Shown: positions 6,001 through 12,000 of the stretch, piece after piece | Layout: the number at the start of each line of letters is the position of its first letter | Numbering within the stretch: the stretch's first letter is position 1 | Source: Candidatus Sumerlaeales bacterium | GTDB taxonomy: Bacteria; Sumerlaeota; Sumerlaeia; Sumerlaeales; Sumerlaeaceae | DNA length: 36,941 bases | Assembly (NCBI GenBank): GCA_038243585.1 | Contig: JBBSQY010000033.1 | Location: 1 to 36,941 of the forward strand | Direction of reading: 5' to 3' | Position numbers: made by a program

Positions 6001-9000
6001 AAAATAGGCGCTATCAGTTCAGTGATTTCTCCGGCGTCAAGCCAATCGCCATCCGCATTTAAATCCCGAGCGCGAAGAATCGTATCTGAAGTAAAATCGT
6101 CGTTATCTGTGATTGCCAGGTCGCCGTTAGCGAGAACGGCCAGTCCGCCGACGTTGCCTACAACGGGCGTAACCGTGCGGGTGGTTCCGGTGTCGAGTTG
6201 CACTTCGAGAATGGAGTGCATGGAGTAGGGCCCAACTGAAGCATAAAGGATGTTTTCGTCGGCAGGGTGCTGAGCGATGGCTCCGCCGAATCCCACTCCG
6301 AGTTCAATGGAATGTGCCAGGTAGCCGGGCGCGAGGGTGGTTATTTCAAGAGTATCGGCAATGGCTGGCTGGTTCATGGCAAAAGCTACGGCCGCAGCGA
6401 TTCCACTGTGGGTGATGATGTTAAATAATTTCAATGTCTTTTCCTTGTGACCTGATTCCGAGGTCTGGTATTTTGCGTTTCGCTGGCGCGGACGATTAGT
6501 CCGTCGCTTTCTTTCATGGGATCATAGTAAAGATCCCGCGCGTTACAATGCGCGGCTCTACCTGCTTCTTTCTGTCCTTTCCGGCGATGATCCATCGCCT
6601 TTTCTCGGAGTTCGGTCTTCTGACTTGCGGATCAACCTCGGTTCTTCAGCCTTCCCAACCCGTGTCGCGGCCAGTGGCTACTGCTTTGAAGAACGTTGTC
6701 CCCGCTTACAGCGGCGGTCCCGTGCCGGATTTTCACCGGCTTCCCGTTAACTCTAAAAAAGAAAACTCACGGCGCACCTTCCGGTAAAGAAGAAAGTGCG
6801 TCGTGACTATAGTACTCTGTACAACGTAGTCACCGCAGACTCAGGCGATACAGCGGACCTTGACGTTTTAGCAGCCCGTCTGAGCCAGTGCGGGACGGGC
6901 AGGAATGCCCATCCTACGAGATTAGGCCCGAACTGTCTCCGGGTAGATTTCTGCTTCTACATCGATGATCTGCAAGAATGTCGCTTTCGCGGCTTCCACT
7001 ATTTTGTCGCCCTCTTCTGGTGTGAACTCAAGCTGTTCCATGGCAGATTTGTAATCTGACCACTTCTGCCGCTGTTCATCTCCATAAGGATCAAGGTAGC
7101 GGGTGCCATCCTCGCCCTCAAGTCGCCATGCGCCGCGCAGGGCCATGGCGATGTATTTGGCTCCATTGTTGCTGCCTTCAAACACATAATGAAAGCCCAG
7201 GAGCGCAAGGTCGTCTGCTGATTCGATTGCCTCAAGCAGCTTTCCCGTGGCTTCACACGGCGCAGCCAGTTCAGGGTCGCCACCGTAGAATCGCAAATCG
7301 GCCGCGGCGCGCTCTTCCTGAAATTGATAATCATGGACGACCGCTGCAATGCGGGGATCGTTGGTACGCGCTTGCCTTAGTTTCGATTCCAAGGTGCGGT
7401 GAATGAGATAGCGCTGGGCCAGTTGCTCACTATAGACATCTTTTGGAAGCTTCCCTTTGACCAGATCCTTTTCGAGAGCGGCGTGTTCCGCCTGCTGATG
7501 CAGCGGCCAGGTCTCTTTTTTCAGTCGTTCTGTAATTGTAATTGCTTCGGTCATGCCGGGAGTTTCCTTTCGTCTGTTAAATCAATTTTTGATATTTTTT
7601 CGTCAATGGGCGATGCATGATTATCAGCATAGTCACGGGGAACGGTAGATGCAGACGAGTCGATCGCAGCATTTCGCCGGGCGAGAATCCAGGCAAGTCC
7701 ACCGCAGCCAATTTCCACGGCACCAACGCTGGCGAAGGTGAAGGCATAACCCATGATTTTACCTGCCACCCCGGCATAAACAAAACCTAGCAGAAGACCG
7801 AAAGAACCCATAAGATTAAAAGCAGAAATAGCGGTGGCTTTTTCGTCCGGTTTGACCATCTGACCCACGAGTACCAGGTTTGCAACAAACTTCAGACCTG
7901 TGAAGAGCCCCGCGAGACCGATGAACACCAGGAACATCCAGGGAAAATCGAAGACCACAGCCAACGAAAGACAAAGGCCATAGCCCACCGAACTGACGGC
8001 TATAGCGCGCCACGCCCCGATACGACTTGTCAAGGTCCCCGCATAACCACTGGCTCCTGCGAACATAATCCAGAAGGCGGTCATCACGGCCCCGGCGGCG
8101 GTGAAGCCAGTTAGCCCGTAACGATCTTTCAGAACCAGGGCCGGCAATATGGCCAGAAGCGCAAACGAGAATTTGTCTACAAATCCGAACATGATCGGAA
8201 GCCATAAACGCGGAACGCCGCGGAGAGAGGCAATCATGGCGCGAGCGCCCGGCTCCCGAACGGTTACATTTTCAGGGCGTTTTACTTCCCACAACAGCAG
8301 GAGCGCCGCAAGCGCCAGCCCGCCGCCGGCAATTCCATAGACGACGTTTATCCCCGCGCCGGCCATTCCCAGAAGTAATGTAAGGGCGCTACCCAGTAAG
8401 TAGCCGGCAGGGATCGAAGTCATAAAAACAGCCATGACTCGAGACCGCGTTTGCGGCGAGCAAAGGTCCAGCGCGCGGGTCATCAACATACCGATGCCAA
8501 CGATTCCGAGCGCTCCATCCAGAAACCGAAGGGCCAAAAGGGAGGAATACTCGCTGGGGAAGGGAAGGAGCATAGTTGTTATGCCGGTTCCAAAACATCC
8601 TGCAAGCGCCAGGGGAACCCGACGCCCCCACCGATCCGAGATAAGGCCGGCCAGCAACCCCAACAGCAGAATCTGCGGCAGGGAATGAACCAGCATAAAC
8701 ATGGAAGTGCCGCGCTGATCCAGATGGAACTTGTTGCGAACCAGCTCATTCAGGGTCGGTGTAATGACCGCCATGGAACAGAACATCATTGTTGTTACCA
8801 CTACCAGGCGCAGCAAAGGACCCCAAGGCATTTGCCCGGGGTCCATGCTGTGCCGACTGGCAGGTGGCATAAGGTGTTTGTCAGTTTTCATATAACTTCA
8901 TGCCACTGTTGTTAGTAATTAGTAGAGGTCCCAGTTACTCGCTGCGCTGTGGGTCGAAATTTCCATAATGAGAGCAGGTGCCTGTTGCAGGGTGCCATTG

Positions 9001-12000
9001 GCGGGCTCGGAAACTCCCTCTTTCGTTACAAGACGCGGATAGGTAGCAGGAGGTCCGCCGGGCTGCGCGGCTGGAAAAGTACCGACCAAGCTCCACATTG
9101 CAATCCCGGATTCCAGATCGTCCCGCAATTGCTGGCGAACATCCGAGTTGCTAACGTCGAGGTTGAAAGTAATTGGAAATGCTTCAGCAGGTGAAGCACT
9201 GCCGTCATAAGATGGATCAAAAGTCCCGACCGAGTATGGTGTAGCCGCCAGGTTATCTTCTGCCCGGTTGCCAGTGCCCAGTTCAATCAAGTATGGGTCC
9301 TGCAGTGGGGTGGCGCTTACAACTCCGGGCCCCACATATCCCTGGGTTTCTGTCCAAGTGGCTTCGGTGAAGCCGTTTTGACCAGTGATTCCGGTAGCGA
9401 ACATTTTCAACTGGCCAGATGCAGGATTCCAGGCGTCGGCGTTTGCCGCCTGCCATAATACGATTCGCGCACTTGTAATCGCGTAAGGAGTGTTTTCCAG
9501 TTCTGGGGGGAGTGCCACAGTCCACTTCATATGCATTGATGAGTAATGTCTGTTGAACATATATGGGCTGGTCTCATCTTTGTAAAAAGCGTAAACTGGA
9601 ATCGTTTTACCTGTGCCCGTGCTGTGGTTCGGAGTCAGATTGGCGTCGCCTGTTAAAACGCCATTTACGGTTCCGGCTTGAGCCGGGGTGCCAAGTACGG
9701 AGAGCACCAACGCAATGCCTGCCGCCGTCATAAAACTTTGTAACATACAATCATCCTTTTTCGTAGGGGTTATTAAACAGAAAATCAAGTGTTGCCGTTG
9801 AACTAAAGGCATGCATGCGACCTGTTACCAGCTGTCAACCCCTGGTAGCGGCGTCCGCGCTATGCCGCCTCGAGCGACAATCTCTCCGCCGCTAATGGTT
9901 CCATTAGTGGGGTCATAAATGTACGTCGCGTAACTGCCGGACCGGATTGAGTATTCGGGGAAAGCGTAATACGGAAAGCTAATAGTAAGATCCGGGCCGC
10001 CGCTGGTTAGAGAATAGGACATCTTGTCGTTTTTAAGCCCTGTTTCACCCGGCCCAGAGACGTGGGACGCGAGCTCGTACAAATAAACGTCAAGCGGCTC
10101 ATTAGGATCAACCACATTAATACTGTCCTCATAGTTATGCCCGGTGGTACGGACAAATGGATCGCGCGGACGAGAGGTTAGATAAGATATCGGCGTCGTA
10201 AGCGGGTTCAGGCGCACACTAGGCATTGGTTCGTAAAAAGTTCCGCTAGGCGGATACGCATTGTTGTCCAACTGATACGTTTCAAGAGCTGTAGCCATGG
10301 TGCGCATCTCGGCTCGAACTCTGGCGGCCTTGGCACGCACTTGCGCCTGTAAAAAGTTGGGTGTGGCGATTGCTGCAAGAATGGCTATAATCGCCACTAC
10401 AATCAGTAGTTCTATGAGCGTAAATGCTCTCATTACCACCTGGGTCCCTGTGTGTCTTTGGATATGTTCGACTGAAAACTTAAAATCACTGCCATTATCT
10501 CCTGCTACAACTTATAAACTTTAGTATGCAAAGAGCACACCAGACTCATCCGAGTCTCTAAATTGTTTATTTTGAATGTTATACATAAGAATAGAGTTGG
10601 GCCAGTGGGGAAATACCGGCTCGTATAAGCCACCGGGTGCGGCAAATAGTGCACTTTCTCAATTTAGTTAATAATGCCTTGGCTTCGGTGCTTTCCTCAC
10701 CGTATGCTAAACCCTTCCGAGCGATTTAATTGCTATTTTTCCCCCGAAAAAGAAGTAGTTTTTGGCGCAAACCAGGATAATGATAGCGCTTTTCGCGAGC
10801 TGTCCATATGCGAGCCGCAGTGGCCAGATCTGCGAGGCATCCATTTCCTTACTAAAAAGACGTTTGAGGTTAATCGGCGGATTCGTATATGGGATAGTGC
10901 CGAGCGGCGATTTGCTGTTTATGAGGTTTTTATGCCGCTCATGCCCGTGGGTGCAGGCTGAGAGAAGGTTTTTGGACGCTTTTAACAATTTTATTTTTTA
11001 CTGGTTTAAAGTTCATGAAAGAGCGTTCCGGGGATGTCGCCATTGTAATTGTTCTCCGTTTCAGGAATGGTTGCATTTAGGGGAAACAATAGGTGGGGAA
11101 ATGGAGAGGGGAATTCCCGCATGGGTACTTAAATGAGATTTTGAAGGGATTGGTGAGCAGACGGCGGACGGCGGACGGCTCGGCGAGCCATCCCTACTCA
11201 TATATGACGTTGGGATCTCGGGAGCGGACGGCTCGGCGAGCCATCCCTACCCGTATATGAAGTTGCACAGGGTGATCCGGCTAAACCGGAAACTCGTATT
11301 CATAATCCTTACTGCATTTTGCTGAGTTGCGCCGTGTAGTTTCTTGCATGAGTAAAAACCCTAAACCTGTGCCCGCTCCGGGTAACGCCAACGAAAGTGC
11401 TTTGGATAAAGAAATCGCGGCGATGTCCATGGAAGCGTGCTTTGAAGAGCTGGAAACTATCGTGACCGCCCTGGAAAACCAGACCACATCTCTTGAAGAC
11501 TCTATAAATCTGTTCGAGCGGGGCATGAAGCTGAGCCGCCGCTGCAACACGGAGTTGACCCGCATGGAGCGCCGAATTCAGATCATTGTGGAAACCTCCA
11601 AGCAAGAAGTCCAGTACAGGGACTTTGAGGAAGACTAGTCAGCGTGGCTAAACCATCCTAATTCGGCAGGGATGGGTAGTCTGTATAGCCCTCCGGTCCC
11701 GGGCCATAGAAGGTTTCCGGATTGGGCGGGTTTAAAGGTGCACCCAGTGAGAATCGTTTGGGAAGATCTGGATTAGCTATAAATGGTCGGCCGAAGGCCA
11801 CAGCGTCTGCTCGCCCCCCGGCCACTACAGCCTCACCGGTTTCCCGGTCAAATCCCTCGTTAAAGATATAAACGCCGCCAAAAGTCTTGCGCAACTCGTC
11901 TCCCAGAAATGGCTCTCTCAGATGTTCTCGAGCGCAGATAAACGCAATGCCGCGGCTGCCGGCCTCGGCAGCGACATGGCCAAAGGTTTTGGAAGGATTT

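Follow-up and report, generated by a model that had tools for sequence, protein, structure and literature searches.

The window analysed here, the whole stretch of 36,941 nucleotides of contig JBBSQY010000033.1 from a Candidatus Sumerlaeales bacterium, carries a pilin gene followed by the gene of an exported protein with a short C-terminal DW tag, cargo A. The locus raises the question of why a genome should hold dozens of such pilins, and why some of them stand beside exported proteins. An earlier note had taken them for substrate-specific adaptors of tagged proteins. Fixed pairs of pilin and surface protein, located in haem- and metal-uptake clusters without the usual outer-membrane importer, suggest that the pili do the importing. 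Features of the locus are collected in Table 1; the pilin and tagged ORFs agree with the earlier description.

Table 1 Features at and around the anchor pilin (positions along the window)
Feature	Position	Strand	Remarks
Family pilin ORF	9825..10433	-	202 aa; leader MRA then FTLIE; in set A head clade
Class III signal and long N-terminal helix (residues 1-57)	10263..10433	-	Nearly invariant among paralogues; N_methyl and TIGR02532 above cut-off
SxGPD island, then variable loop 3 (FPYY in set A)	9990..10004	-	G146 and P147 invariant in A1; Y155 invariant in set A
Family signature YDPTNGxxSxG, ahead of last strand	9885..9917	-	Motif search
Cargo A, exported protein, 275 aa, C-terminal DW tag	8919..9746	-	Sec-type signal read by eye; putative surface binder
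DW tag (SAASNWDLY, stop)	8919..8948	-	PSSM score 23
MFS transporter, operon gene 3	7551..8846	-	MFS_1; same place in G035 (f13) and G049 (f15)
Haem oxygenase, operon gene 4	6922..7554	-	PF01126 above cut-off
Cobalamin riboswitch, upstream of second tagged gene	6593..6784	-	RF00174, 87 bits; like arrangement in G062
Second DW-tagged exported protein, under riboswitch	5334..6434	-	Tag; no family match

The anchor pilin was compared with domain and structure libraries. It matched N_methyl (27.1, cut-off 21.2), with Glu5 and the hydrophobic helix in place, and TIGR02532 (29.6, cut-off 16.3), which was matched at E 0.01 by 24 of 27 family members. The best PDB sequence matches of the N-terminal helix were the PilA helices of Geobacter and Myxococcus, and NF041775, the Myxococcus-type PilA equivalog, was matched over the N-terminus only (51.3 against 400). 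The claim that GspG and PilA family scores are all sub-threshold holds for the GspG equivalog TIGR01710 (56.3, under the cut-off of 88.85) and fails for N_methyl and for Pfam T2SSG (PF08334), which passed at 21.9 against 21 over residues 27–94 only. PF07596 (DUF1559) was absent from the Pfam search, and the terminal motif is YDxTNG, not H-X9-DG. The model of the anchor pilin (pLDDT 80.1) has a long N-terminal helix, spanning residues 4–57, and an alpha/beta head; an earlier, poor model from a divergent 27-row alignment had reached pLDDT 55.7, and the pLDDT of 90 previously given was not recovered with these smaller alignments. The top 17 rows in VIA-align were all pilins, among them CofA (Z 7.4, rmsd 3.3, 145 aligned), EpsG (Z 7.3, rmsd 2.6, 98 aligned) and PulG (Z 6.9), the best Z being middling; a Foldseek search with the model returned nothing at E 0.001 (best E 0.032). 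Domain matches and model place the family pilin in the type IV pilin superfamily; assembly genes were found, and PilD processing and a filament are predicted. The label 'GspG-like' is partly right, as the head has GspG-type motifs and fold and the helix is nearest to Geobacter and Myxococcus PilA.

The pattern Y[DN][APS][TS]NGxxSxG recovered 28 ORFs in this genome (G000), the number reported before. An FTLIE-type N-terminus is present in 25, two have degenerate N-termini, and the ORF at C4:109681 is a pilin head fused to a membrane protein, with the class III signal missing. Among 24 aligned copies, identity averaged 89.6% over residues 1–36 but 26.6% for the head, which bears out the near-invariant N-terminus and hypervariable head described earlier; in the family alignment, hypervariable loops accompany a constant helix. 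Across the phylum the motif was found, as claimed, in 75 of 75 genomes, with 2616 matches and none for the reversed pattern. The median was 35 copies per genome (range 4–89), with 58 of 75 genomes inside the 20–55 that had been called typical. 'Mostly solitary' is accurate for this genome and not for other families of the phylum, which contain tandem arrays of 4–5 pilin genes. A GTDB scan with A1, which keyed on N-terminal peptides, returned 76 loci, mostly unrelated pilins; 10 were full-length, five named Sumerlaeota/BRC1 and five unnamed. A literature search, with supplements and subscription papers outside its scope, found no description of the pilin family or of a pilin–cargo module, and the words 'pili', 'pilin', 'TonB' and 'heme' are absent from the main texts of PMC8092238 and PMC10866078.

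Such a family could consist of alternative pilus subunits, adhesive or phage-evading, and be linked to tagged genes by common insertion into variable surface-gene loci. The hypervariable loops on a constant helix and the tandem arrays fit that description, as do a lineage-specific clade of 15 pilins in G017 and the mostly housekeeping-like neighbours, judged by sequence, of pilins in G069 and G017. Surface variation does not, however, predict head-specific partners kept at 40–60% identity across families, nor placement in haem and nickel operons under metal-type regulators (see below). It may apply to tandem copies; as an account of the whole family it is very improbable.

The DW tag was called at a PSSM score of at least 10, which gave 83 genes in this genome and 0 in the internal control. 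Nine tagged proteins matched no sorting-signal model in NCBIfam at E 0.001. Nine of 27 called pilin genes adjoin a tagged gene (C4:109681 is missing from the gene set, and a tenth neighbour, on C24, scores 8, under the cut of 10), whereas 131 of the remaining 2473 genes do so (5.3%; binomial p 6e-6); for signal-peptide-like genes, taken as a control, the count was 32 of 441. Linkage was replicated in seven other genomes, and the adjacency above chance proposed earlier stands. Only 23 of the 180 pilins in those genomes have a tagged neighbour, which weighs against an importing role. Pilin and tag counts per genome correlate weakly (Spearman 0.24).

One explanation of this linkage is that the pilins are export adaptors, each recognising its partner in the periplasm and carrying it outward via the secretin of a type II or type IV system, in the manner of TcpB and TcpF, while the nutrient enters otherwise. 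The many enzymes among the tagged neighbours (GH43, peptidase, amidase) favour it; most of the 83 tagged genes lack an adjacent pilin, so that one dedicated linked pilin each is not required.

That each pilin reads the DW tag was considered and rejected: the tag is common to all cargoes while heads are pair-specific, untagged cargo homologues still pair with pilins, and two pilin-rich genomes (G070 with 89 pilins, G013 with 67) gave no tag-pattern matches. The two DW-tag patterns together detect 50 of the 83 tags of this genome. The first had suggested that the tag is missing from several families, which was discarded when a variant longer by one residue was detected in 67 of 75 genomes; only f16 and a few genomes are nearly tagless. 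Homologues in other lineages have PEP-CTERM-like or dockerin-like anchors in the place of the DW tag, which, judged from sequences and neighbouring genes, is therefore a generic signal for sorting or anchoring, short and positionally equivalent to those tails. Of the adaptor idea, substrate-specific pairing is borne out more strongly than before, the pairs being cognate and kept across families, and the tie to the DW tag itself is not supported; the context is nutrient uptake, not bulk enzyme export.

Three tagged-protein families (sets A, B and C) each keep to their own pilin head type over three to five families. Adjacent pilins were found at 14 of 17 loci in set A and 13 of 16 in set C, and beside 8 of 8 full-length genes of set B. 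Among 203 pilins, the nearest head was always in the same set (A 14/14, B 8/8, C 13/13), with no outsiders at 80 bits or more. Heads of sets A and B form clades (SH-aLRT 94); those of set C are paraphyletic, with five unpaired pilins nested inside. Gene order flips in G061 for set C, and also between G061 and C17 of this genome. Pilin and exported protein are, from their sequences and gene context, a cognate two-gene module. On the other side, cross-family pilin pairs with very similar heads have no neighbour in common in 30 of 38 cases, the clades would match under co-inheritance of a cassette as well, and related genomes do not count as independent cases.

Pilin and partner might also be co-regulated and independent, the pilin alone acting in metal acquisition, possibly without a filament, and the partner being inherited in the cassette without contact. 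The available part of PMC13170364 offers a precedent in Legionella PilA2, a pilin in metal acquisition possibly without filament. Set-specific candidate ligands in the loops are in keeping with this (YCxxHP occurs in all 12 full-length pilins of set C, and in 13 of the 203 pilins as a whole; Cys in 8 of 8 and His in 7 of 8 set B pilin loops), and so are set D pilins, with the palindromic operator described below and no tagged partner seen. Order flips, and one cargo domain found with three unrelated pilin head families in total, are hard to explain without functional coupling, and we judge independent action distinctly unlikely.

Cargo A had no match in Pfam, NCBIfam or PDB sequences, and none of 15 members matched Pfam, PF24517 included. 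Against Atlas CBM96 clusters it scored 0.91, with 135–146 features in common where 170 is typical of the same family; a CBM96/DNRLRE-like protein is a lead only. Homologues were found in 16 of the 75 genomes of the phylum; the cargo A protein alone, run against metagenomes, gave no matches. Complex prediction for anchor pilin head and cargo A gave 0.06 and 0.01 (mark 0.32), which weighs neither way. A promoter and terminator scan stayed at chance level.

The anchor operon runs pilin–cargo A–MFS–haem oxygenase, an arrangement shared with G035 and G049 and, without the MFS gene, with G062. The order in G046 is Peripla_BP_2, FecCD, haem ABC ATPase (NF010068, 309.5 against 261), cargo C, pilin, haem oxygenase and ChuX, and set B lies with a ZnuA/ABC-3 transporter and a divergent NikR. 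Haem oxygenase was found less than 4 kb from cargo A at 7 of 17 loci and not at the remaining 10, several of which are at contig ends. Conversely, cargo A or C is no more than 4 kb away from 15 of the 28 haem oxygenase genes, and 21 of 24 genomes with haem oxygenase also carry cargo A or C. A palindrome derived from set A recurred at 5 of the 17 loci of set C, compared with 16 matches over 1.95 Mb; among 21 exact sites examined, 8 were ahead of pilins and 6 ahead of FeoA, haem oxygenase, Peripla_BP_2 or cargo C. The palindromic operator was absent from this genome and its family (0/13), and its control of the anchor was rejected, no site lying upstream within two mismatches. A link between set D pilins and phosphonate-ABC genes (G046, G061) was likewise dropped, being divergent and not conserved in other orthologues. 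Of 44 B12 riboswitches, at least 6 are followed by a tag in the next 4 kb (expected 0.16). Gene context and sequence thus place the modules in haem- or nickel-type uptake operons, with an inner-membrane importer and a processing enzyme and without a TonB-dependent receptor. For the anchor, haem or another iron source would be the most likely ligand; loci of other lineages, few with haem genes and others with ZnuA/ABC-3, speak against a firm assignment for cargo A.

Scarce nutrients, among them haem, nickel and B12, usually pass the outer membrane via TonB-dependent receptors, and a diderm phylum mostly without these receptors, with cognate pilin–binder pairs in the same operons, points to a pilus-powered alternative. 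No TonB-dependent barrel or plug was matched in 62 of 75 genomes, although MAGs are incomplete and divergent barrels could escape. This genome (89.7% complete) has no TonB-dependent receptor and two TonB_C proteins, and the operons examined have no barrel or plug gene. G046 and five other genomes with cargo A or C each have one receptor, elsewhere in the genome; 11 of 14 control genomes are also without them. The assembly genes of this genome comprise a PilMNOPQ-like operon, PilB-like ATPases and 12 PilT above cut-off. On C45, a type II secretion operon comprises E, F, H–M, C and D genes with GspG absent within, and none of the 28 dispersed pilins lies between its F and H genes. Canonical GspG is a separate gene on C5 (TIGR01710, 131.7 bits against 88.85), which the pilin family matches by profile over residues 2–66 only.

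Export adaptors would suit the C45 operon without internal GspG and a head fold tied between CofA and EpsG/PulG, and cognate pairing is equally compatible with them. Yet canonical GspG is present, the outer-membrane step of haem uptake is left unexplained, and neither the 12 PilT nor operator-controlled solitary pilins are accounted for; we consider export unlikely. We see about an even chance that pilins specific for a cargo link binders on the surface to a retractile, nutrient-importing pilus, a reading in which binding and direction are inferred from genomic data and most pilins are solitary. The phylum would possess a repertoire of interchangeable type IV pilins, with a common assembly helix and a scaffold bearing three variable loops, a subset of which would be cargo-specific couplers in nutrient capture. 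The pilin would be built into a retractile filament by the PilMNOPQ-like, PilB-like and PilT proteins, or into a type II endopilus, and its loops would recognise either its matching binder or the ligand that this has bound. Retraction via a secretin would then bring the ligand, or the binder carrying it, to the periplasmic ABC or MFS importer, replacing the TonB-dependent receptor. Solitary pilins may bind ligand directly or have unlinked partners.

Cargo A homologues of other lineages have a pilin within 1.5 kb at 38 of 41 loci with both flanks present. They end in dockerin-like or other tails instead of the DW tag, and their pilins belong to two other families. The arrangement at L438 is cargo–pilin–HemS–periplasmic binder–FecCD–ABC. 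A BLAST screen of 80 non-phylum loci found haem genes at no more than three; others have ZnuA/ABC-3 genes. A BLAST haem oxygenase match in L417 was set aside because Pfam did not confirm it. PF07596 was matched sub-threshold by 1 of 7 neighbouring pilins, 12 such pilins matched no DUF1559/H-X9-DG model in NCBIfam at E 1e-5, and a DG-H-type ending was found by regex in 15 of 47. A wider reading is possible, if somewhat doubtful: Sumerlaeota swapped TonB-dependent receptors for an antibody-like pilin library (constant helix, three variable loops, one binder or ligand each), with a retractile pilus as general importer of haem, metals, B12 and glycans, and Planctomycetota and Verrucomicrobiota reached parallel solutions with their large prepilin expansions, the same cargo domains being used with other anchors. 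Large prepilin paralogue families would gain a testable function, homologous cargo–pilin modules with haem or metal transport genes occurring outside the phylum, where some relatives may be in culture.

Among known systems, TonB-dependent loci (Hmu/Chu haem, Btu, SusC/SusD) combine a surface binder, a periplasmic binder, an ABC or MFS importer and a processing enzyme under metal- or B12-responsive control. The operon logic is the same here, with pilin and tagged protein filling the barrel/plug slot. The large prepilin expansions of Planctomycetota and Verrucomicrobiota, which we take to be DUF1559/H-X9-DG, are large paralogue sets too; the YDxTNG-type head of Sumerlaeota is unrelated in sequence, and an H-x9-DG-like ending occurs on pilins beside non-phylum cargo A homologues. 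GspG/PulG (TIGR01710, PF08334) share the class III signal, the Y-x-x-D..YP, PxDPF and SxGPD motifs (a correspondence made by eye) and the fold of EpsG and PulG. They differ in length (about 135 residues against about 205), and the family described here has three inserted variable loops, 4–89 copies, a PilA-type helix and a true GspG encoded separately. Akkermansia MUL2 is, in the available part of PMC13174399, a single locus with pilin-like genes described for glycan attachment; it likewise ties such genes to substrate acquisition, without, in that part, a cognate repertoire. In type IVb export by TcpB–TcpF and CofB–CofJ, according to the available part of PMC10120004, a pilin is also specific to one Sec-exported protein encoded nearby, whose terminus carries a short aromatic peptide, and CofA is the best fold match of the anchor pilin. 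Those systems each have one minor pilin, which reads an N-terminal signal and exports, whereas Sumerlaeota have dozens of major-type pilins, a C-terminal tag common to all cargoes and an import context. The bindosome of Sulfolobus solfataricus, as the available part of PMC3047682 describes it, uses a type IV pilin-like assembly system to bring solute-binding proteins to the cell surface, where they serve ABC uptake. Its binders bear class III signals of their own and the archaeon lacks an outer membrane, whereas in the diderm Sumerlaeota, with secretins and PilT, binder and pilin are separate genes.

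The pilin repertoire is real and its structure is richer than first reported: it is phylum-wide, and some of its pilins are paired with cognate binders in modules that lie in operons for haem and metal uptake. In the source genome (G000) the YDxTNGxxSxG motif was found in 28 ORFs, of which 25 have the standard N-terminus, two have a degenerate one, and one consists of the head (the variable C-terminal part of the pilin) fused to a membrane protein. Identity among 24 copies in this genome was 89.6% for residues 1-36 and 26.6% for the head, and a motif search of the phylum gave 2616 matches, in 75 of 75 genomes, with no control matches. 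These results bear out the claims of an earlier note that a 28-copy family with a near-invariant N-terminus and a variable head exists, and that it is a phylum-wide signature. The conserved islands of the pilin (the helix to YP, LTTPxAY, PxDPF, SxGPD and YDxTNGxxSxGD) are interspersed with three variable stretches. Family pilins stand in tandem, four or five per array, in G017 (L179, L192) and G003 (contigs C193, C267), and G017 also has a lineage-specific clade of 15 members. Two G000 loci, L010 and L022 (C14:6286 and C67:1720), carry near-identical pilins with similar upstream genes, reflecting either duplication or a co-binned strain, the latter flagged in the earlier note.

Features of the source genome. 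Positions without a contig name are in the window.
Feature	Position	Strand	Remarks
Anchor pilin gene	9825-10433	minus	
Anchor cargo A	8919-9746	minus	exported, 275 residues, C-terminus SAASNWDLY
Cobalamin riboswitch	6593-6784	minus	upstream of tagged gene, directly after haem operon
Uncharacterised DW-tagged protein	5334-6434	minus	downstream of cobalamin riboswitch
Third DW-tagged exported protein	12838-13755	minus	top tag score of G000, no family
Family head domain fused to membrane protein	C4:109681-110574 (L007)		no class III signal
PilT/PilU genes	contigs C8, C23, C75, C5, C42, C93, C31, C2, C22		

The pilin N-terminal helix is nearest to that of Geobacter and Myxococcus PilA. When a model of the anchor pilin (pLDDT 80.1) was compared with known folds, the predicted head tied between CofA (Z 7.4, rmsd 3.3, 145 aligned), EpsG (Z 7.3, rmsd 2.6, 98 aligned) and PulG (Z 6.9, rmsd 3.9, 115 aligned), all with middling scores. 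A family pilin failed the GspG equivalog test; the true GspG of G000 lies alone on contig C5 (L023:10165-10617), outside the type II secretion operon (C45:11740-24382; L017, L027), which itself contains no GspG gene. The genome also has a PilMNOPQ-like operon, assigned by gene order and secretin score, and another large secretin, its third. Its ATPases include four full and one shorter PilB/GspE-like proteins and, within 3.4 Mb, 12 PilT/PilU proteins above the curated cut-off, among them three tandem pairs. A permissive scan returned 44 prepilin-like genes, 17 of them (one a false match) not of the family and mostly minor-pilin-like; no canonical PilA was recognisable among these 17. Other observations in G000 were a secretin of unusual length, 1692 residues (C32:28553-33631), and another small group of prepilins, long ones of 216-267 residues, three of them in tandem (C76:7053-9381, C40:29822-30676). 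In a further operon on C45 (L017:4063-10425), possibly a dedicated machine, an assembly ATPase and PilC/GspF-like genes accompany a minor pilin and a single family pilin.

A PSSM for the DW tag, a short C-terminal sequence on exported proteins, identified 83 genes in G000; at that cut, internal controls gave no match. A tagged gene was the immediate neighbour of 9 of 27 called pilins, whereas the share among other genes was 5.3% (p 6e-6), so the adjacency claimed earlier is indeed above chance. The linkage was replicated beyond the source genome. Across 180 pilin surroundings from seven other genomes (pilins taken: G066 22/22, G069 22/22, G017 32/38, G029 23/27, G061 30/41, G064 22/57, G046 29/52), tagged genes were enriched at rank 1 (25/288) relative to rank 3 or higher (9/653; Fisher p 1.9e-7), but unevenly: 23 of the 180 pilins had a tagged neighbour, with 8/30 in G061 and 8/22 in G064, both tag-rich, and 0/22 in G069. 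Among 34 pilin-tag pairs, including those of G000, 25 were on the same strand, seven divergent and two convergent. Pilin and tag-pattern counts correlated weakly over genomes (Spearman 0.24), and G070 and G013, with 89 and 67 pilins respectively, had no tag matches; the pilin family therefore does not require the tag.

Cargo sets were built by searching the phylum with three tagged pilin neighbours. Cargo A occurs in 16 of 75 genomes from five families and has an adjoining pilin at 14 of 17 distinct loci, the misses being two contig ends and one fragment. All eight full-length set B homologues, from five families, adjoin a pilin, which neither the single truncated copy nor any of the four weak matches does; set C has an adjoining pilin at 13 of its 16 loci, from three families. 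Among 203 pilins, ten duplicate loci having been left out, the nearest head came from the same set in every case (A 14/14, B 8/8, C 13/13), and no outsider head scored 80 bits or more to any set. A quick tree (202 rows) placed sets A and B as clades (SH-aLRT 94) and set C as paraphyletic, with five unpaired pilins within it. That the repertoire serves surface variation appears very improbable. Gene order is flipped within set C and in one other pair. Where the heads of a cross-family pilin pair match at 100 bits or more, 8/38 pairs have a common neighbour, a low share that counts against generality, though it is far over the 88/8379 of dissimilar pairs. Residues particular to each set (FPYY in A, YCxxHP in C, a Cys and a His in B) suggest that the pilin itself might contact the ligand. 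Export of each cargo by its own pilin would fit the cognate pairing as well, but we consider it unlikely.

The pairs recur in uptake operons. The anchor order of pilin, cargo, MFS and haem oxygenase is also found in G035 (family f13) and G049 (f15), and without MFS in G062; it was not found in two further extended loci. The G046 genes run from a periplasmic binder through a FecCD permease and a haem ABC ATPase to cargo C, and on to pilin, haem oxygenase and ChuX. A haem oxygenase lies within 4 kb of cargo A at 7/17 loci and of cargo C at 8/16; of the 28 haem oxygenase genes, 15 lie that close to one or the other. Cargo A or C is present in 21 of 24 haem oxygenase genomes, and haem oxygenase is absent from 6 of 27 A/C genomes, kin not being independent in either count. 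Set B in G029 is beside ZnuA, ABC-3 genes and a divergent NikR, part of which is also seen in G064 and G017. One contig region, G038:C121:78-15000, reads as an iron-uptake island: it combines set A and set C with a haem oxygenase and has three exact copies of the operator palindrome described below.

A palindrome, TTTGGYATRCCAAA, was derived from set A upstream regions (9/19 loci) and was also found in the independent set C (5/17), with 0/14 in set B and 16 occurrences across the 1.95 Mb that other pilin loci make up. There are 35 exact sites in 21 genomes, against two for controls, and none in G000. Of 21 sites examined, eight lie upstream of pilins, three of periplasmic binders and one each of FeoA, haem oxygenase and cargo C, with no gene assigned at seven; we infer an iron-repressor box. 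Set D (L371, L375, L377, L378, L265, L003:7940-8638), a conserved pilin clade from five families, has the palindromic operator upstream in five genomes, and no tagged partner was seen adjoining its pilins. At L382 and L384 an operator-controlled pilin is followed by an apparent lipoprotein solute-binding protein; related pilins include one adjoining NikR in G066 (L139). Both cobalamin riboswitches of G000 are upstream of tagged genes. The arrangement in the window recurs in G062, and the riboswitch on C10 is followed by a tagged gene together with a pilin-like gene that does not belong to the YDxTNG motif family. Across G001-G038 a tag lies no more than 4 kb downstream of at least 6 of 44 riboswitches, a lower bound compiled by hand; 0.16 would be expected. 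That pilin and cargo act independently within one regulon is distinctly improbable in our estimation.

Cargo A homologues extend beyond the phylum. A profile search gave 499 representatives; among the best 150, the DW tag ended 37 of the 45 top-ranked and 5 of the other 105, in which regex searches found 22 PEP-CTERM-like and 25 dockerin-like tails. Dockerin_1 was detected in 5 of 30 homologues scanned, and two named homologues are from Planctomycetota and Phycisphaerales. The DW tag thus stands where other homologues carry surface-anchoring modules. Scanning metagenomes with 12 of these homologues retained 80 of 221 loci, on contigs that carry no taxonomy and include near-duplicates. A prepilin gene lay within 1.5 kb at 62/80 loci, and at 38/41 with both flanks present. 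The 47 distinct full-length pilins divided into two groups, of 25 and 21, and a single pilin, which alone is of Sumerlaeota type. L438 has the order cargo, pilin, HemS, periplasmic binder, FecCD and ABC ATPase; ZnuA or ABC-3 genes occur in L453, L444 and L465, and haem genes at no more than 3/80 loci.

G000 is a diderm, with two Omp85 proteins and three secretins, and has no match to a TonB-dependent barrel or plug. Both are absent from 62 of 75 phylum genomes, the remainder having one or two matches. Receptor absence alone is weak evidence, because G046 has one receptor match at another place in its genome, two TonB_C proteins are encoded in G000, and most control genomes likewise lack such receptors.

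In the mechanism we propose, which has about an even chance of being correct, extension would display the pilin-cargo pair and retraction through the secretin would bring the ligand into the periplasm. The common helix would make pilins interchangeable within one filament, with their loops the source of specificity; the cargo, a putative surface binder, would be held or sorted by its tail, and the importer and enzyme would complete the pathway. The modules may be a new kind of outer-membrane import, although we hold this somewhat doubtful. No description of the pilin family was found in the literature searched, and the main texts of the phylum papers PMC8092238 and PMC10866078 lack the key terms. 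A Legionella pilin reportedly has a role in iron acquisition with no piliation (PMC13170364), and a glycan locus linked to a pilus is reported for Akkermansiaceae (PMC13174399). The Sumerlaeota modules resemble a TonB-dependent locus in operon logic, TcpB/TcpF in pairing (PMC10120004) and the archaeal bindosome in purpose (PMC3047682); they lack the defining features of each, and are classed as a variant of type IV filament systems.
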